33,059 nt of DNA. It comes from Deltaproteobacteria bacterium. GTDB lineage: Bacteria; Desulfobacterota; Desulfobaccia; Desulfobaccales; 0-14-0-80-60-11. A program made the position numbers and the translations under genes. The DNA is taken from NCBI GenBank assembly GCA_037381685.1, contig JARRQO010000023.1, positions 1 through 33,059 of the forward strand, in the 5' to 3' direction. The notes under the pieces were generated by a model. The model had not been told where the DNA came from. It ran no database searches and worked only from the letters and a program-made list of their open reading frames with translations. Positions 3,499 to 18,581 of the stretch are shown piece by piece (position 1 is the first letter of the stretch; each line of letters opens with the position of its first letter).

Positions 3499-4458
3499 TC
3501 AGCCGCCGATGCTCACCATGGCGCGGTTCGGGGCAGCAGAAGTCAGGGCAGGAGAGACGCGACCTTTCAGACGGATGGCCTCCTGAAACAGCCGGGCCAG
3601 GGTCTCATCGGAAACGCCTCGGCGCAGGGGTTCCTTCAGGTTCAGTTCCGGCGTGGCGAAGAGACACGGGCGCAGTCGCCCGGCCGCGGTGAGACGCAGG
3701 CGGTTGCAGGTGGGGCAGTGATGATCGCTGACCGCGCTGATAAACCCCAACTCCCCCTTAAACCCCGGAACCCGGAAGGTCCGGGCCGGACCGGCGGTGA
3801 CGGACGAAGTGACGGTTTCCAGGGGACCCAGTTTGGCCAGCCGCTGACGCACCTCGGCGATGGACATAAAGTGGCGGCGCCAGCGCGACTCTTCCACCGT
3901 GGGCATGAACTCAATAAAACGTATCTGGAAAGGCTGCTCTTGGGTCAAAAGCGCAAAGTCCAGGAACTCGTCGTCATTGAGGTCTTTTAAGGCCACGCAG
4001 TTGATCTTTATGGGGGAAAAACCCAGGGCCCTGGCGTGGTCCAAGCCGGCCAGGACGTCATCGAAATGGTCCCGGCCGGTCAACTCCCGGAAGCGGTCCC
4101 GGCGCAGGCTGTCCAGGCTGAGATTGAGGTGGCGCAAACCGGTGTCGTAAAGGTCTGCGGCCAGCTCCTTGAGGCGCACCCCATTGGTGGTGAGGCAGAC
4201 CTCCTCGATCCCGGGAACCTGTCGCAGGCGCCGGATAAAGTCCAGGACGCCCCGGCGCACCAGGGGTTCGCCGCCGGTAACCCGAACCTTGCGGATGCCG
4301 ACGCCCGCGGCTACCCCGGCCAGCCGCAGCAGCTCTTCATAGCGCAGAATCTCCTGGCAGGGCAGTTTCTCCCACCCCGCCCAGGAGGTGCAATAAAAAC
4401 ACCGGAGATTGCAGCGGTCGGTGATGGAAATTCGCAGATAATTGATGACACCCGGCAA
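3499..4458 (-). CDS. moaA: GTP 3',8-cyclase (molybdenum cofactor biosynthesis, radical SAM)
   Basis: YLRISITDRCNLRCFYC radical-SAM CxxxCxxC motif. VRVTGGEPL. C-terminal CxxCNRLRLTAAGRLRPCL second-cluster motif. TTG start with GGGAAG upstream. Confidence 0.9.
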   Translation of the reverse strand: MPGVINYLRISITDRCNLRCFYCTSWAGWEKLPCQEILRYEELLRLAGVAAGVGIRKVRVTGGEPLVRRGVLDFIRRLRQVPGIEEVCLTTNGVRLKELAADLYDTGLRHLNLSLDSLRRDRFRELTGRDHFDDVLAGLDHARALGFSPIKINCVALKDLNDDEFLDFALLTQEQPFQIRFIEFMPTVEESRWRRHFMSIAEVRQRLAKLGPLETVTSSVTAGPARTFRVPGFKGELGFISAVSDHHCPTCNRLRLTAAGRLRPCLFATPELNLKEPLRRGVSDETLARLFQEAIRLKGRVSPALTSAAPNRAMVSIGG

Positions 4459-10640: not shown

Positions 10641-11699
10641 CTACCAGGTTTGGGTCATCGCCTCCATCTCATCTTTCAGTTCCCGGGCCATTAACTTTTT
10701 TACGGCTTCCTTGGGTGCCAGGCCTTCATAGAGGATCTTGTAAGATGCGGTCACCAGGGGCATTTCCACCCCCAGGCGCTGCGCCAGGGCATATACGGCC
10801 CGGGAAGTCTTCACCCCTTCCGCCACCATGGCCATGCCGGTGAGAATCTGGTCCAGAGAAACGCCCTGCCCCAGCTTCATGCCGACCTGAAAATTGCGGC
10901 TCTGGGTGCTGGTGCAGGTGAGGATCAGGTCTCCCAAGCCGGCCAGGCCCGTGAGGGTCATGGGGTTGGCGCCGAGCCGCGCCCCCAGCCGAACCATTTC
11001 GGCCAGCCCCCGGGTGATGAGCGCCGCCCGGGGATTATCCCCCAGGCCCATGCCTGAAATTATCCCGGTGCCAATGGCAAAGATGTTTTTCAGCGCCCCT
11101 CCCAGCTCCACACCGGTAACGTCGTGGGAGGTGTAGACCCGAAAGTAGGGGGCGGAAAAGGTGCGTTGCAGAAAGTGGGCGATGTCCCGCTGCCGGCAGG
11201 CAATGGTCACCGCGGTGGGCTGTTTCTGGACCACTTCCCGGGCAAAACTGGGACCGGACAGCACCGCGTAAGGCGTCTCCGCCCCCATTTCCTCCCGCAC
11301 CACCCCTTCCATGGTGAGAAGCGAATCGATCTCCATGCCCTTGGTGGCGCTGATCAGCACTGCGCCGGCCGGCCAGTACCGCACCAGATCGCGCCCCACC
11401 TGCCGGAAGCCGTGAGAGGGCACCACCATAAGGATCATCCCGGCCCCGTTTAGGGCCTCGGGAAATTCCCGGGTGAAGCGAATCCGGGAGGACAGACGCA
11501 CCCCGGGCAAAAAGGTTTGGTTGATCCGTTCCCGGCTCAGGACTTCATAGACCTCGGGCTCCCTGACCCAAAGGCGGACGGTTAGTCCCTTTTCCGCCAA
11601 AAGCTGCGCCAGCGCGGTGCCCCAACTGCCGGCGCCGATTACGGCAATGGTTTTGGCCTCAGGAGATTCCAAGTTTGGATTCAACCTCGCCGTTACCAT
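10641..11699 (-). CDS. gpsA: NAD(P)H-dependent glycerol-3-phosphate dehydrogenase
   Basis: [14 protein letters not shown] Rossmann motif. [13 protein letters not shown] and [11 protein letters not shown] motifs. The ATG at 11699 overlaps the gyrA 3' end by 41 nt; an internal TTG (about 11672) is an alternative start. Confidence 0.9.
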
Positions 11700-13998
11700 T
11701 TTTTTCCGCCACCTTGGCTACACTTACCACCTTCTCTTCCGCCTCCAGGTCCATGAGCTTAACTCCCTGGGTGACCCGGCCGATCAAAGATATGCCTTGG
11801 GCCAGCATGCGCAAAATTTTACCACCATCGGTGACCAGCATGATTTCATCATCGCCGAACACTTGGAGGATGCTCATAATGGGGCCGTTGCGTTTGGTAA
11901 TATCCAGCCCCTTGACCCCCTGGCCGCCCCGGTGGTGCTCCGGATACTTCTTCGGGTCAGTGCGCTTGCCAAAGCCCCGTTCCGTCACCGTGAGGATGGT
12001 GCCCCCGGTACGTAACACTTCCATGCCCACCACCCGGTCCTCGGGGAGCACTTCCATGCCCTTGACTCCTCGGGCGATGCGGCCCATGTCCCGGACCTCC
12101 GACGACGCGAAGCGAATAATCTTGCCCAACTTGGTGCCCATCAGGATACTCTGCTCAGGTTCACTCATTCTAACGCTCACCAGTTCGTCCTCGGCGTCCA
12201 GGCTAATGGCAATAATGCCGCCGCTGCGAGGCCGTTGGAAGTTGGTCAGCTCGGTTTTCTTGATGGTCCCCCGCCGGGTGGCCATTACCACGGATACTCC
12301 CGGGTTAAATTCCCGCACCGACAGGATGGTGGCCAATTTTTCGCCTTCTCCCAACTGCAGCAGGTTGACGATGGCCTTGCCTTGAGCCGAAGGCGAGCCG
12401 ACGGGAATTTCGTGGACCTTCAGCCAAAACACCCGGCCTTTGCTGGTGAACACCAGAAAATAGTTGTGGGTGGAGGCGATGTACAGTTGGGAAACGAAAT
12501 CGTTTTCCCGGGTAACCATGCCCATGCGGCCTTTACCGCCCCGGCGCTGACTGCGGTAAATGGTCAGGGGGGTGCGCTTGATGTAACCCCGATGGCTGAT
12601 GGTCACCACCATCTCTTCATCGGCGATCAGGTCTTCCGCGGTGATATCCTGGGCCTGAGGCACGATATCGGTGCGCCGCTCGTCACCGTAGCGTTCCTTC
12701 AATTCAGTCAATTCCTGGGCGATGAGGGCCTTGACTTCGGTCTCTTCCGCCAGAATCCGGCGCAACCGGGCCATGTTCTCGGCCACCGCCTGGGCCTCCT
12801 GCACGATCTTTTGGCGTTCCATCCCCGTGAGTCGCTGCAACCGCATATCCAAAATGGCCTGGGCCTGAGTCTCGGACAGAGCATAGCGGCTCCGGGTTTC
12901 CTCCAAACTGAGGATATCCGGGGCCTCCTGGATGAACATACCGGCCATCAACTGCTGCTTGGCTTCCGGGGGATTGGCTGCGGCCCGGATAAGATCGATG
13001 ACCTGGTCCAGAAAATCCAGGGCAATGAGCAGGCCGTCCAGAATATGGGCCCGGGCCTCCGCCTGCTTCAACTCATAACGGGTGCGCCGGAGGATCACTT
13101 CCCGGCGGTGCTCCAGAAAATGCTGCAGCAGGTCCTTGAGGCTTAACAATTCCGGCCGGTTGTGGACGATGGCCACCAGATTGATGCCAAAGGTGACCTG
13201 CATCTGCGTGTGGAGATATAGCTGGTTCAGGATGGGTTGCGGCAGTTCATCCTTTTTGAGGAGGATCGCCACCCGCAGGCCTTCCCGGTCCGATTCATCC
13301 CGGATATCGGAGATGCCTTCCACCTTCTTGTCTTTCACCAACTCGGCGATGCGCTCAATCAGCCGGGCCTTGTTCACCTGATAGGGCAGCTCCCGGATAA
13401 TCAGGCTTTCCCGGCCACCTTTGCGCTCCACCGTCACCTTGGCCCGGAGGCGGATGAGCCCCCGGCCGGTGCGATAGGCCTCGGCAATGCCTTCGGCCCC
13501 GTAAATAAAGGCTCCGGTGGGGAAATCCGGCCCCGGCAGGATGGCCATCAGTTTTTCCAGGCTAATCTCCGGATTTTTGAGGCTGGCCAGGAGCGCGTCG
13601 CAAACCTCGCCCAGGTTATGGGGCGGGATGTTGGTGGCCATGCCCACGGCAATGCCCGAGCCCCCGTTGACCAGCAGGTTCGGCAGGCGGGTGGGCAGCA
13701 CCAGCGGCTCTTTGAGGGAGCCGTCGTAGTTGCCCACGAAATCCACCGTGTCTTTGTCCAGGTCCTGGAGCAGCTCGTGGGCCAGCCGGGTTAGCCTAAC
13801 CTCGGTGTAACGCATGGCCGCGGGCGCATCCCCGTCAATGGACCCGAAGTTGCCCTGGCCGTCCACCAGCGGATAGCGCAGGGAAAAGTCCTGGGCCATG
13901 CGCACGATGGCGTCATAGACCGCGGTGTCATCCTCAATGTTGATAGGTACCGCGTGTGCTTCCATCATATTGAATAGACTCTGTTGTTTGTTGTCCAT
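11659..13998 (-). CDS. gyrA: DNA gyrase subunit A homologue with an in-frame loss of the conserved N-terminal block (possibly defective, chimeric, or an assembly artefact)
   Basis: [45 protein letters not shown] (catalytic Tyr), [23 protein letters not shown], and a C-terminal beta-pinwheel with repeated G-rich blades. The N-terminus reads [24 protein letters not shown] directly fused to the GyrA residue-82 equivalent. No SD precedes the ATG. Confidence 0.85.
13934..13992. repeat. 59-bp direct repeat, copy A (equals the first ~22 codons of the gyrA ORF)
   Basis: tcaatgttgataggtaccgCgtgtgcttccatcatAttgaatagactctgttgtttgtt. Two mismatches to copy B. Weaker homology continues to the ATG at 13998. 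Confidence 0.95.
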
Positions 13999-14000
13999 TT

Positions 14001-14047
14001 TCTGTATTTATCTGCGTCCATCTGCGGCTTTAAATCTCAACCGCCGA
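14001..14047. repeat. CGCAGATG-type leader motif, degenerate copy immediately 5' of the gyrA start codon
   Basis: Minus strand: ccatcggcggttgagatttaaagccgcagatggacgcagataaatacagaaaATG. It aligns with the MNT leader (..tctgcggttaaatgaaagcgcagatgggcgcagatgaatacaga..). Confidence 0.85.
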
Positions 14048-14078
14048 TGGACCGGGATTAGCTTATTAACTGCTGCTC

Positions 14079-14101
14079 GTTCCCAAGCCCAACTTGGGAA
14101 C
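14079..14101 (-). terminator. Stem-loop gttcccaag-cccaa-cttgggaac 18 nt downstream of the hicA stop (no U-tract)
   Basis: Perfect 9-bp stem read from the sequence. The lack of a T-run makes intrinsic-terminator function uncertain. Confidence 0.3.
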
Positions 14102-14118: not shown

Positions 14119-14340
14119 CTACAATTCAAATTCACTCCGTGGAATCCCAGACTGTCGAATAATTGATTGCAGCGTTCCTATTCTAAGTTCGGCATGATCA
14201 ACAACTGGAATAGTAATCGTACTGCCCGGAACCATCTTCTGCATAAGAAGATGGCTGCCTCGCTGGCGAACTTCTTTGAATCCGTGATTCGATAAGATTC
14301 GGCAGACCTCTTTGCCGGAAAGAACGCGAAGTTTACCCAA
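14119..14340 (-). CDS. hicA: HicA-family mRNA interferase toxin (type II TA)
   Basis: MGKLRVLSGKEVCRILSNHGFKEVRQRGSHLLM matches the HicA/YcfA pattern (SGKE...GF...RQxGSH). TTG start with GAGG 7 nt upstream. 8-nt overlap with hicB. Confidence 0.85.
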   Translation of the reverse strand: MGKLRVLSGKEVCRILSNHGFKEVRQRGSHLLMQKMVPGSTITIPVVDHAELRIGTLQSIIRQSGIPRSEFEL

Positions 14341-14554
14341 CCGCTACCTCAACCTGGGTAATATAGACCTCTTCCCGGAGACGGTCTTTAATCTCCTCTT
14401 TAGATGCTGTCTCAAAAAACAGTTCCAAGGCTTCCTGGAGATTTTTCCGCGCTGCCTCGATGGTATCTCCCTGGCTGGCTATATCAAGTTCCGGACACAG
14501 AGATACATAGCCATTGCCTTCCCGTTCAATGATGGCGGTAAGTTGGCGCTTCAT
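14333..14554 (-). CDS. hicB: HicB-family antitoxin (short, UPF0150-type, no obvious DNA-binding extension)
   Basis: TAIIEREGNGYVSLCPELDIASQGDTIEAARKNLQEALELFFE is the typical HicB partial-RNase-H-fold core. GGAG RBS. Translationally coupled to hicA. Confidence 0.75.
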   Translation of the reverse strand: MKRQLTAIIEREGNGYVSLCPELDIASQGDTIEAARKNLQEALELFFETASKEEIKDRLREEVYITQVEVAVG

Positions 14555-14676
14555 GGTTTCTCCGATCTAATTTGCTGGTTTCTTTGCCCTCGGATAACCC
14601 ACAAGGCCATGCGAGTAGTCTTAACATAGTCTCTTTCCAATCTTTACCTGGAGGAATATTTCACTTTTTAGACTCT

Positions 14677-14735
14677 TCAATGTTGATAGGTACCGTGTGT
14701 GCTTCCATCATGTTGAATAGACTCTGTTGTTTGTT
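14677..14735. repeat. 59-bp direct repeat, copy B (between the ATPase stop and the hicB start)
   Basis: tcaatgttgataggtaccgTgtgtgcttccatcatGttgaatagactctgttgtttgtt. Minus-strand reading is ..[28 protein letters not shown]. It has CTG in place of the ATG and a 6-nt indel relative to copy A. Confidence 0.95.
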
Positions 14736-14780
14736 TGAAATGTCCAGGGTTGATCACCTAATATTTATATCAGCAATTAA

Positions 14781-16613
14781 TTAATTGGTGAAAGAAGAGA
14801 AGTGTTCAAATATTTCAATAACTTCTGCGAAGACACCAAAATCTTGCTTCTCTGCTTCACGGAGATAAAGCATCTTTAATCGGCCTATATCGAGTCTTGC
14901 TTGGGAAGCGAAGATTTTTATTATTTGGCGACCAGGAATTAGGTATTTCCAAAGATTATTTCCGTCCGCAAGGCTATTTTCCAATACTTGGAATTTTTCA
15001 GCAACAACTTGATTTATTATGCTTGCGTCAAGTTCACTGGTAATGCGCCCCTGCTCTTCGGAAGCTCGTCCTGAAATCAAATCTAATAACTCTTCTTTCG
15101 ATCGTTTATGGCAATCCTTGGCCATTAAATCAATATTACCGGCCTGCTGCCGGAAGATTGTGGAAACTTGTAGGGAAACTGCATAAGAAATAGTACTACG
15201 CGCGATCTCGCGAAGTCTTTTTAGAATTTCTTCCGGCGAAATTAGCCAAGATTCCTCAGATTCCATCTGAGAGAAAATTTGAGCTAGGATTTGCTCATCA
15301 AGGAAGTAATTTTCCAAATGATATCTTGGAAGTACACGGAAACGATCAAGAGCTCTGCTTCCTTCTAGCGGCTCTGAAGGTGAGGAAGGCGAGGTATCAC
15401 CATCACAAAGCATAAAAAAATCAACACCCCAAATTGTTTTCTCAAGTACCTGGGAAGATATTGTAGAAAAAGAGATGATGGTTGCCTTTCCTCCACTGGG
15501 AACTAAAACCAAGTTTGGAAATTTGTTTTTTATGATTGAGCCATAAACTAACTTGTCAAGACTGGCGTTCGTCCCTTCAATGAGCACTATACGCCTTCCT
15601 AATGCTACTATCCCTATAGATTGACCAAGTAAACGCAATGCTTGGTTTGTTTCATCATCCGAAGTAACAAGAATGGCTTGATTGGTCCCGGAATCATTGG
15701 GAGGAGCGATAAAAATCACGGAATGTTCAAGTGAAGCTGTAATGATGTCTGGAGAATGTGTGCAAAAGATAAATTGGTTTTTTTCCCCTATAGTTTCCAG
15801 AGTTCTCATTAGCTTAAAACTTAATTCAGGGTGCAAGTGCAATTCTGGTTCATCAAAAATCACAATGCTGTGAGAGGGTCTCCTGAGAAGGAAGTCAAAA
15901 ACGATGTTTACTACTTCCTGCTCACCGGAGCTAAGAGTTGTAACAGGAAATTGTTTTCCCTCGCATGCATAATCGAGGTGAGTCTTTTTTAAATCAGGGC
16001 TTAACAATTCCTTTGGTGAGAGGAGCTGACTGAAAGCCCGCTTAAATGGTTCTAAAGGGTCCTTGAAATTTAATTCCATGGAAGTCTCGCCTTGGAGCAT
16101 AAGCTCCTCGGCTTTTTTAGCAATACGGTCTCTTTGGCTCTGGACTTTGCGAAAAATTGAATGCAAGGTGTCTTGGAAGCGAGATTTAAGTCCTTCAAAT
16201 GTTGTATTCCAACCAATATTCTCTTCATATGGATCTTTAATATCCCATGAGAATTTGAAGGGAGTGATCTTCTGTATTGAACGGTCGCTTTCGAAGTTAA
16301 TTATACTGCTCCTCCATTTTGTCCGAAGGCGACCTTTGTGCAGAATGCCCTGGAGCCTCAATGCATCCTTTGGATCGCTAGTATCAATTTCCTTCTTGCC
16401 CCAATCCTTGATTTCTTCAGCAGTGGTCGCATGAATGACAAGCTGTATATTTTTCCTCGAAGTTGGATTCTGAAAATAATAAAGTAGGGCTTGTGCCAAT
16501 CGTGTCTTGCCTACCCCGTTCGGACCAGCAAGCACAATAATATTTGATAGCTCACCTGCTTCAAAACTTTTGATAGGTGGAACGTCTTTTACTGAGATAT
16601 GCGTTAATCGCAT
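14781..16613 (-). CDS. ABC-type (SMC/RecF-like, AAA_15/21-type) ATPase fused to a DUF4435/TOPRIM-like C-terminal module; OLD-family / single-polypeptide PARIS (AriA-AriB)-like candidate defence protein
   Basis: Walker A VLAGPNGVGKT; signature LSSGEQ; Walker B/D-loop IVIFDEPELHLHP; H-loop FCTHSP. C-terminal half has RRIVLIEGTNASLDK, VLVPSGGK, FFMLCDGD and LPRYHLENYFLD (Glu / DxD / ENY pattern of TOPRIM-like DUF4435). About 40% GC against a roughly 60% GC host. Confidence 0.7.
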   Translation of the reverse strand: MRLTHISVKDVPPIKSFEAGELSNIIVLAGPNGVGKTRLAQALLYYFQNPTSRKNIQLVIHATTAEEIKDWGKKEIDTSDPKDALRLQGILHKGRLRTKWRSSIINFESDRSIQKITPFKFSWDIKDPYEENIGWNTTFEGLKSRFQDTLHSIFRKVQSQRDRIAKKAEELMLQGETSMELNFKDPLEPFKRAFSQLLSPKELLSPDLKKTHLDYACEGKQFPVTTLSSGEQEVVNIVFDFLLRRPSHSIVIFDEPELHLHPELSFKLMRTLETIGEKNQFIFCTHSPDIITASLEHSVIFIAPPNDSGTNQAILVTSDDETNQALRLLGQSIGIVALGRRIVLIEGTNASLDKLVYGSIIKNKFPNLVLVPSGGKATIISFSTISSQVLEKTIWGVDFFMLCDGDTSPSSPSEPLEGSRALDRFRVLPRYHLENYFLDEQILAQIFSQMESEESWLISPEEILKRLREIARSTISYAVSLQVSTIFRQQAGNIDLMAKDCHKRSKEELLDLISGRASEEQGRITSELDASIINQVVAEKFQVLENSLADGNNLWKYLIPGRQIIKIFASQARLDIGRLKMLYLREAEKQDFGVFAEVIEIFEHFSSFTN

Positions 16614-16635: not shown

Positions 16636-16941
16636 CTAAGCGGCATACACAACCTCTTTGGTCGTCAAGATATTATGACGCCGAAACGGATTGCGAATAG
16701 CATCTTTTTCTACCAAGTCGACTTCATGGCCCAAAATTGCCGCCAGCTCATCCGACATCTCCACCCGGTTATCGAACATGATTCCTCCATCCGGTTCAAA
16801 AGTCACCAGCACATCCACATCACTATCAGTCCGAAAATCATCCCGCAGCACCGACCCGAACAGCGCCAATTCTTTGATCTTCCAGCGACGGCAGAAGTCT
16901 TCGATCTGCTTTAAGGGAATATTAATTTTGGCTTGAGGCAT
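16636..16941 (-). CDS. Minimal nucleotidyltransferase (MNT / MntA-like, Pol-beta superfamily) lacking an adjacent HEPN partner
   Basis: LALFGSVLRDDFRTDSDVDVLVTF is the GSx(10)DxD signature of MNT antitoxins. 101 aa. The stop lies 22 nt upstream of the ATPase start, which has its own GAGGA RBS. Confidence 0.85.
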   Translation of the reverse strand: MPQAKINIPLKQIEDFCRRWKIKELALFGSVLRDDFRTDSDVDVLVTFEPDGGIMFDNRVEMSDELAAILGHEVDLVEKDAIRNPFRRHNILTTKEVVYAA

Positions 16942-16961
16942 TTTTAGCTTAATCTGTATTC

Positions 16962-17007
16962 ATCTGCGCCCATCTGCGCTTTCATTTAACCGCAGATTAA
17001 CGCAGAT
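16962..17007. repeat. Double-stem hairpin ATCTGCG-ccc-ATCTGCG-(12 nt)-CGCAGAT-taa-CGCAGAT between the GxxExxY stop and the MNT start
   Basis: Read directly: two 7-nt arms are repeated on each side and are perfectly complementary. Located 3' of the GxxExxY gene and 5' of the MNT gene on the minus strand. Confidence 0.9.
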
Positions 17008-17026
17008 AAGAGCTGATAAACACGGA

Positions 17027-17422
17027 TTAATAATTATTCACAATACGCCTGATTTCCGCCTTGGGCCTGCCAAAATTAACCAGCAAACACACTGAAAGAT
17101 CAGTAGCCCTAAGATAATTCAAGCACTGGGCCATATGCACCTCATCCAAGGCCCTGGCTACCTTTAACTCTATAAGAACCTTGTCCTCGACTAACAAATC
17201 TGCAGCAAACTCCCCCACGACCATCGTATCGTATCTAACCTGAATGCCATATTGCTGCTTGGCCTCCAACCCGTTTTTTCTGAGTTCCAGCGCTAACGCA
17301 TTTTCATAAACCTTCTCCAAAAATCCACTTCCCAACGTATTACTTACCTTATAAACACAACCAATAATCCTTTCCGTAATACTATTCAAATCTAATCTAT
17401 ATTCATCCTTATTCATCTGCAT
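17027..17422 (-). CDS. GxxExxY family protein (PD-(D/E)XK-like small protein)
   Basis: GSGFLEKVYENALALEL (GxxExxY motif), ADLLVEDKVLIELKV, and the CLLVNFG C-terminal motif of the family. The start codon is embedded in a decamer tandem repeat. Confidence 0.85.
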   Translation of the reverse strand: MQMNKDEYRLDLNSITERIIGCVYKVSNTLGSGFLEKVYENALALELRKNGLEAKQQYGIQVRYDTMVVGEFAADLLVEDKVLIELKVARALDEVHMAQCLNYLRATDLSVCLLVNFGRPKAEIRRIVNNY

Positions 17423-17452
17423 TCATCTGCGTCCATCTGCGTTCATCTGCGG
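17401..17452. repeat. Tandem decamer array (about 5 units of rttcatctgc on the + strand, i.e. GCAGATGAAY on the minus strand)
   Basis: attcatcctt|attcatctgc|attcatctgc|gtccatctgc|gttcatctgc|gg. It covers the GxxExxY start codon and its first codons (MQMNKDE), and it fills most of the 43-nt gap to the LivK-like stop codon. Confidence 0.9.
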
Positions 17453-17465
17453 TTAAATTATTTTT

Positions 17466-18581
17466 TTACGGCTTCATCGTCGTCAGATATACAAACTTCC
17501 CTTTCTCCACTTTGATGATGGTCACGTCCTTGATGGGATTGTGGTTCGGCCCCATGGTAATGGTGCCCGTCACCCCGGGAAAATCTTTAGTCGCGGCCAG
17601 GGCCCCCGCCACCTTGACCCCAGCGGTGCTGCCGGCCTGGGCCATGGCTGCGGTCAAAAGGAAATAGCTGTCGCCGCCCAGGGCCGCAAAGCCGGACAGG
17701 GGTTTGTGGTACTTGGCCTCATAGGCCTGCATGAATTTTTTCCCCAGCTTCGTGTTGGCGCCCTGACGGTGAAAGAGCGCGGTGAAGTACATGCCGTTCA
17801 CCGCGGGCCCGCCGATGCTGAGCAGTTCCGGCACCTGGGCCCCGTCTCCGGTTAAAATCGGGGTTTTGACCCCCAACTCCTTAAGCTGCTTGGCCAACAG
17901 CGCATCTTCAGTGTAGTAATTCGGCGCGTAGATGAGATCGGGCTTGGCCGCCTTCAGGGCCGAAATCTGGGCGCTGAAATCCTGGTCGCCGGTCTGGATA
18001 TAGCTGACGGAAACAATCTGGCCGCCCAGGCGCTTGAATTCCTCCATAAAATACTTGGCCAGGCCGACGCAGTAATCCTGGGCCTGGTCGATGAGCACCG
18101 CCACCCGCCGGGCTTTCAGGTTTTTATAGGCGAACCGGGCCGCCACTTTGCCCTGCAGGTCATCCACATACGCGGCCCGAAAGGCGTATTTCCGGTTCTG
18201 GGTCACCAGGGGATTGGTGGCGGTGGGAGTGATATTGGGAATCTTGGCCCGCTCGGCGATGGGCACCCCGGCCAGGGTATCGCTGCTGATCACCTCGCCG
18301 ATGATGGCCGCCACGTGATCCTGCTCAATGAGACGGCTCACCGCATTGGCCGCCTCTATGCGGTCGCTGCGGGTGTCCAGCATCACCAGCTTGATGGGCT
18401 GCCCCAACACCCGGGGTTCCAGCTTGTGGGCCACCTGAACGCCTTCCCACACCATCTGCCCCATGGCCGCGGCCGGCCCGGTCATGGGGAGATAGAGCCC
18501 GATTTTGACAACAGCCGCGGCCGGAGCCGCCAGGATCAGCAACAGGCCGGCAACCAGAAAGAACTGTTTAATTAGTCGCAT
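17466..18581 (-). CDS. ABC transporter substrate-binding protein, branched-chain amino acid (LivJ/LivK, type 1 PBP) family
   Basis: Signal peptide followed by KIGLYLPMTGPAAAMG. Overall Leu/Ile/Val-binding-protein-like pattern. No permease or ATPase genes adjacent. Confidence 0.85.
   Translation of the reverse strand: MRLIKQFFLVAGLLLILAAPAAAVVKIGLYLPMTGPAAAMGQMVWEGVQVAHKLEPRVLGQPIKLVMLDTRSDRIEAANAVSRLIEQDHVAAIIGEVISSDTLAGVPIAERAKIPNITPTATNPLVTQNRKYAFRAAYVDDLQGKVAARFAYKNLKARRVAVLIDQAQDYCVGLAKYFMEEFKRLGGQIVSVSYIQTGDQDFSAQISALKAAKPDLIYAPNYYTEDALLAKQLKELGVKTPILTGDGAQVPELLSIGGPAVNGMYFTALFHRQGANTKLGKKFMQAYEAKYHKPLSGFAALGGDSYFLLTAAMAQAGSTAGVKVAGALAATKDFPGVTGTITMGPNHNPIKDVTIIKVEKGKFVYLTTMKP

Follow-up and report, generated by a model that had tools for sequence, protein, structure and literature searches.

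Loss of 66 N-terminal codons from the gyrA gene of an uncultured Desulfobaccales bacterium, probably a private and recent deletion

The window analyzed here (the whole stretch of DNA, with a length of 33,059 nt) carries, at 11659–13998 on the minus strand, an open reading frame of 779 aa as printed, an orthologue of DNA gyrase subunit A in which 66 codons close to the N-terminus are absent. We consider it highly probable, at roughly 85%, that this is an ordinary gyrA that bears a private, recent and inactivating deletion, which is either technical in origin or a biological dead end, and that it is not an evolved, remodelled gyrase. Sequence and gene order mark the locus as the usual gyrA orthologue of an uncultured Desulfobaccales (Thermodesulfobacteriota) bacterium. 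As far as gyrase is concerned, the finding is minor: an essential gene, ordinary in other respects, bears a private lesion.

The gyrA reading frame and its missing block

The in-frame gap in gyrA is exactly 66 codons, or 198 bp, which are absent between positions 13928 and 13927 on the minus strand. The deletion junction (tga|c, 13927–13930) reads gaggatga|caccgcg at the DNA level and ...NIED(D)|TAVYD in the protein, with a microhomology of 2 nt (GA). In an alignment with close relatives and with E. coli GyrA, one clean 66-column gap extends from VPINIED to DTAVYD. As each residue number in the relative P0002 equals the E. coli number plus 8, the gap corresponds to E. coli GyrA residues 16–81 or 17–82, and the first residue past the junction is a Thr at the Ser83 equivalent. 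The profile matches start late as well. The Pfam match to PF00521 (DNA_topoisoIV) begins at profile position 50, and the NCBIfam gyrA equivalogs enter at profile position 75–76, in both cases at ORF residue 24, such that the complete N-terminal winged-helix block (PF00521 positions 1–49; gyrA model positions 1–75) is not found in the ORF. Searching for the 66-residue missing block with tblastn yielded only noise elsewhere in the window.

The initial annotation of this DNA, made from the sequence, had claimed that the block is absent in frame and had proposed an alignment with reference GyrA proteins as a check; the gap, the late profile matches and the lack of the block in the window all confirm this claim. 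It had also stated that no LDYAMS- or LKPVHRR-like peptide occurs in any reading frame of the window. This holds insofar as the tblastn matches to the block were unconvincing, but not to the letter, as the string LIPVHRR occurs at 14041–14061. This string was considered as a possible remnant of LKPVHRR and rejected as a chance match, since it sits in an intergenic CATCGGCG-type repeat that is also found before the intact gyrA in the relatives L001 and L006.

Because the scores for the gyrA equivalogs exceed the curated cut-offs (NF004043, 1041 bits with a cut-off of 902; TIGR01063, 1013 bits with a cut-off of 877), we classify the gene, by profile, as GyrA and not ParC, with its N-terminal block gone. 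The ParC models score under their own cut-offs on this ORF. The translation keeps the catalytic Arg121-Tyr122 motif (AAMRYTE), the GyrA box (QRRGGKG) and six PF03989 blades (Pfam) in the C-terminal beta-pinwheel, the GyrA box and the six-bladed beta-pinwheel being the marks that separate GyrA from ParC. The catalytic Tyr context and the C-terminal domain are hence intact, as had been noted at the outset. When compared with canonical GyrA (that of E. coli, e.g. PDB 6RKS; TIGR01063/NF004043), the window protein shares the architecture from the Ser83 equivalent on, including the Arg-Tyr pair, the tower, the coiled-coil, the GyrA box and the six blades, but is without residues ~16–82.

In GyrA, the winged-helix (CAP-like) DNA-gate domain begins with the segment ~16–82, which supplies its first helices. 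Arg32, Lys42, Arg46, Arg47, His78 and His80 (E. coli numbering) all lie inside the deleted segment, and in E. coli GyrA these residues are reported to be essential for catalysis or to belong to the active-site cluster (PMC2094056, PMC4297366). As essential and active-site residues are missing, we infer a loss of activity, with a product that would be unable to form a working DNA-cleavage site. In our reading the allele would be null, the deletion being almost certainly inactivating. The coiled-coil and the C-terminal beta-pinwheel are still encoded, as is the catalytic Arg-Tyr. Since the dimerisation elements are retained, it is conceivable that heterodimers might be poisoned, in which case the deleted GyrA might be dominant-negative.

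The residues that precede the junction were examined in the same alignments. GyrA proteins of relatives open with M(N/D)(E/N)KQ(P/Q)SLF(T/N)..., and the first 23 residues of the ORF resemble this N-terminus with 75% identity; the nucleotides are also conserved, and the leader together with the upstream nucleotides aligns to the gyrA 5' region of ~20 relatives. Going by these alignments, the 23-residue leader is the genuine N-terminus plus 5'UTR of gyrA in this lineage, and the VPINIE motif is best taken as a real GyrA N-terminus. The initial annotation had raised the alternative that an unrelated leader of 23 aa took the place of ~81 residues and resembles GyrA at VPINIE by chance. As the leader is conserved in relatives at both the protein and the nucleotide level, we give this alternative practically no chance of being correct.

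The ORF that starts at ATG 13998 exists as it was first described, but the true gyrA start is likely to be ATG 13968 (MMEAH...), giving a protein of 769 aa that equals the public gene call P0001. The codons upstream of this start would then belong to the 5'UTR. Indeed, the relative L001 conserves the nucleotides of the 'NKQQSLF' codons but has an in-frame TGA that closes them, and these codons are therefore regarded as 5'UTR. A 62-nt repeat, the second copy of which is considered further below, has its first copy at 13931–13992 (minus strand), and this copy is the real conserved gyrA 5'UTR together with codons 1–13. The nucleotide-conserved 5'UTR at 13968–13998 (AAACAACMGAGYCTATTYA) is without an obvious Shine-Dalgarno sequence.

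In a database of 5.8 billion clusters, the nearest proteins are the GyrA of Desulfobaccales/Thermodesulfobacteriota MAGs (835–847 aa), with 85–87% identity, while the sole 100% match is the gene's own 769-aa call, which lies on a contig of 33,059 bp, so that the window is an entire contig. With the full-length GyrA of Desulfobaccales MAGs, the window protein has not only 87% identity but also the same gene neighbourhood in common. The best GTDB representative match to the window is 87% identical. The order of periplasmic binding protein, 1–4 small cassette genes, gyrA, gpsA and PFK is the same in the window as in L001, L002 and L003, and the order of binding protein, slot, gyrA and gpsA recurs in about 12–15 further relatives. 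In the window, the conserved downstream neighbour gpsA (10641–11699, minus strand) overlaps the gyrA stop, as is also the case in relatives, and on its upstream side the cassette slot is bordered by the gene for the periplasmic binding protein (17466–18581, minus strand), a boundary that is conserved too. All other window genes with a counterpart in L001 align over their full length and without frameshifts. To judge from this comparison, the gyrA lesion is single and isolated, and the contig is otherwise sound.

Near-identical contigs and the search for other carriers

Because a near-identical contig from a sister sample keeps the block in exactly the same context, we regard the deletion as private to the window contig and as very recent, namely younger than ~0.3% sequence divergence. 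This contig (L004; JGI sample 3300076654, 3,814 bp) was found via an exact-sequence look-up of the window HicB protein. When compared to window positions 17656–13929, it shows 11 mismatches and no indel (~99.7% identity), and it carries the gyrA leader of the window together with the same GxxExxY, MntA, AriAB-like, hicB and hicA genes. Past ...ATTGAGGATGA, L004 goes on with AATCCGCAAGTCC..., coding for the intact block up to the end of the contig, whereas the window goes on with CACCGCGGTC. It should be noted that L004 stops at codon 52, so that only the initial 38 of the block's 66 codons are shown to be intact. A further contig from the same sample as L004 (L005) matches window positions 12047–6320 at 99.93%, and the same island is found in a third sample (L088). 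At this level of identity, we take it that the same strain occurs in sibling samples and that the block, or at least its first 38 codons, is present there. The initial annotation had considered an unusual remodelled paralogue, which does not agree with a syntenic orthologue that scores above the equivalog cut-off and has an intact sister of ~99.7% identity. Relaxed selection on the rest of gyrA was also considered, but is uninformative with sister contigs that are 99.7–99.9% identical.

Among the related loci from reference genomes and metagenomes, ~75 reach the 5' end of gyrA, and the block is contiguous in all of them with the exception of L059. In this locus (Nitrospiraceae MAG CAWCEG010000004.1), the alignment of the GyrA N-terminal block at ~4001–4330 is split into two pieces that overlap and contain 16 gaps, pointing to an assembly with a frameshift or indel in the GyrA block. 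Scanning metagenome DNA for the junction with its 44-nt 3' flank returned two relatives only, both intact, and among the matches listed from the database of 5.8 billion clusters (queries including the first 185 and 456 residues) the junction is found in no other protein. In the 773-aa matches to the junction query the N-termini are intact, but the C-termini are garbled and seem to be frameshifted. Intact N-termini and garbled C-termini are likewise seen in the GyrA calls of relatives on ENA contigs (P0242–P0246 and P0258, 727–773 aa), and we take the garbled C-termini of these calls to be assembly errors.

Origin of the deletion

The two ends of the deletion have GA in common and no longer repeat. 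Since no repeat longer than GA is found at the ends, de Bruijn-graph collapse is no natural explanation, and reads with the junction probably existed. In the sense of a repeat collapse, the 'assembly collapse' proposed in the initial annotation can thus be set aside; its more general suggestion of a defective gyrA or an assembly problem was the right family of explanations. We propose that the 198 bp were lost in frame via an illegitimate, non-homologous join at the 2-nt GA microhomology. Such a join could have arisen in a real molecule, be it through an error when DNA was replicated or repaired or through a chimera formed in library preparation or amplification, or else in a contig-joining step. 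For a technical origin, in which a chimeric molecule or a join was fixed in the assembly, we estimate somewhat better than even odds. A biological dead end, that is, a variant that is in the minority, non-viable or masked by other genome copies, is a tentative but serious possibility. The technical origin is preferred because a lethal allele cannot dominate a population with a near-identical intact sister. Two points should nonetheless be considered as arguing against a technical or dead-end lesion, namely the high quality of the contig outside the deletion and the fact that the deletion is in frame, which is expected by chance in one of three cases.

The lesion can be compared with those that are private to single metagenome contigs, with which it shares an isolated indel, minimal microhomology, absence from a near-identical sister population and uniqueness in the searched databases. 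It differs from the usual lesions of this kind in being in frame and in an essential gene, and hence looked designed. The start of the deletion lies 3 nt from the breakpoint of an older gyrA rearrangement, the one that involves the second copy of the 62-nt repeat. The repeat itself was considered as the cause of the deletion and rejected, as the duplicate is also present in the intact L004 and no repeat reaches the 3' end of the deletion. Nor could a conserved hairpin be upheld for the breakpoint that both events share; the window folds locally, yet RNAalifold on 16 relatives gave no pairs.

Could the deletion instead be real and fixed in the strain, tolerated via a second functional gyrA elsewhere, with the present locus being a fresh pseudogene? 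The contig runs straight through the junction with no other defect and has no repeat to which a mistake of the assembler could be attributed, both of which would agree with such a state. The sister population of 99.7–99.9% identity has, however, an intact gene at the very same locus, and the related genomes appear once each among the best 80 gyrA loci of the reference-genome scan, a count that comes from genomes other than that of the window and does not amount to a test for second copies. We consider a tolerated pseudogene of this kind improbable. A functional remodelled or split gyrase was weighed too, in which the block would come in trans, from a split gene or through a split intein, or the protein would have taken on a new role (as a regulator or a gyrase-poison decoy). 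That the deletion is in frame, that the Thr right after the junction is a permissible intein +1 residue and that toxin-antitoxin and defence genes adjoin gyrA are all compatible with such a gyrase. Yet the pre-junction residues are the native N-terminus and not an intein C-segment, no block-encoding fragment is found in the window by tblastn, a new function would have had no time to evolve, given the intact sister, and the searched databases contain no second example.

Intein-containing or split type IIA topoisomerase genes (the mycobacterial GyrA intein; NF038098) are alike in that their N-terminal domain is interrupted and that a Ser or Thr follows right after the break. The window gyrA, by contrast, shows a loss of sequence in place of an insertion, is devoid of intein blocks and has a native leader, and the GyrA_w_intein model (NF038098) reaches 786 bits, far under its cut-off of 1850. 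With no HN motif found in addition, a split intein was rejected, and a functional remodelled or split gyrase as a whole is, in our estimate, extremely unlikely. That the deletion is both real and dominant, such that the bacterium lives with, or uses, a GyrA lacking ~16–82, whether by means of a second gyrA or with the protein as a dominant-negative regulator or decoy, next to a defence and toxin-antitoxin cassette array by which the 5' end of gyrA would be rearranged repeatedly, we hold to be very unlikely. Were the allele nonetheless real and dominant, a second gyrA or the tolerance of a crippled gyrase would be implied, either of which would be surprising. We thus keep to an ordinary gyrA with a private, recent and inactivating deletion. 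The junction lies directly before the Ser83/Asp87 quinolone-resistance positions, and automated QRDR numbering on this contig would be misled, as would single-copy marker completeness checks and phylogenies that use it.

The cassette slot upstream of gyrA

More promising biology is found upstream of gyrA, in a low-GC, palindrome-delimited and content-variable cassette array that appears to have already displaced one gyrA 5' end. The slot that separates the binding-protein gene from gyrA is taken up by the region from 13,931 to ~17,465, with 39–48% GC as compared to ~60% elsewhere. This slot is conserved in Desulfobaccales relatives and its contents differ, consisting of combinations of GxxExxY, MntA (with or without HepT) and HicBA, while the AriAB-like gene was seen only in the window and its two sister contigs (L004 and L088). 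The window was found to contain no integrase.

All genes in the slot lie on the minus strand. Closest to gyrA is the hicA toxin gene (14119–14340; 73 aa; PF07927, E 1.1e-16), followed by a hicB-like antitoxin gene (14333–14554; 73 aa) with a weak UPF0150 match that is below the cut-off (E 3.9e-4). The window thus has the HicA toxin domain and the adjacent small upstream antitoxin gene by which a HicAB pair is recognised. In the slot of L012 and L018, the gene before hicA encodes a product with 93% identity to the hicB-like one, and the pair is conserved there. A recent import of the hicBA cassette was considered and rejected, as its nucleotide identity to L012 and L018 (~83%) is that of the core genes. 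Further upstream, an ABC/AAA ATPase gene (14781–16613; 610 aa; AAA_21 and AAA_15) has as its best PADLOC match the AriAB fusion model PDLC02981, which covers residues 165–574 (E 9.7e-55). By this match, the ATPase resembles a fused AriA-AriB and is a putative PARIS defence protein. PARIS (AriA/AriB) consists of an ABC ATPase and a TOPRIM/DUF4435 effector, and the window gene would be a fusion of these.

The MntA-like nucleotidyltransferase gene (16636–16941; 101 aa) has no HepT partner in the window; unlike this lone antitoxin gene, MNT-HepT pairs occupy the same slot in L003 and L018. Next to the binding-protein gene lies a GxxExxY / PD-(D/E)XK_3 gene (17027–17422; TIGR04256, E 5.5e-41), which lies between two 50-nt arms in inverted orientation, each built from tandem copies of the 10-nt CAGATGRAYG (16984–17033 and 17409–17458). 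The arms are 78% complementary, with the repeat regions extending over 16943–17033 and 17396–17458. A further CAGATGRAYG-type copy is located at 14001–14026, just upstream of gyrA, and related CATCGGCG repeats flank the gene in L001.

Cassettes in the slot are closed by a palindrome, TTCCCAAG-N5-CTTGGGAA (14080–14100), which could be a terminator or a recombination site. It matches once in the window, with 0 matches expected by chance, and 10 copies were found in 8 loci (7 related loci and L004). With a spacer of N5-6, the palindrome is seen at cassette ends and just upstream of gyrA in L003, L004, L006, L008, L011, L013, L018 and L019.

The second copy of the 62-nt repeat, at 14674–14765 (minus strand), is a displaced remnant of the gyrA 5'UTR and the first ~13 codons. 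Its leader is of the GGTGATCAACCCTGGAC type, as found upstream of gyrA in L009–L012, L018 and L019. The copy is cut off after ...CAACATTGAAGA and is joined there, upstream of hicB, to the hicBA cassette. As L004 has this copy too, at 2890–2984, it predates the deletion. The second copy would represent the original gyrA 5' end, displaced when DNA with hicBA and a fresh gyrA 5' end recombined in, presumably through homology-facilitated illegitimate recombination with gyrA as the anchor. In L004, the second copy has an ATG and an ORF of 28 codons, and the corresponding codon in the window is CTG.
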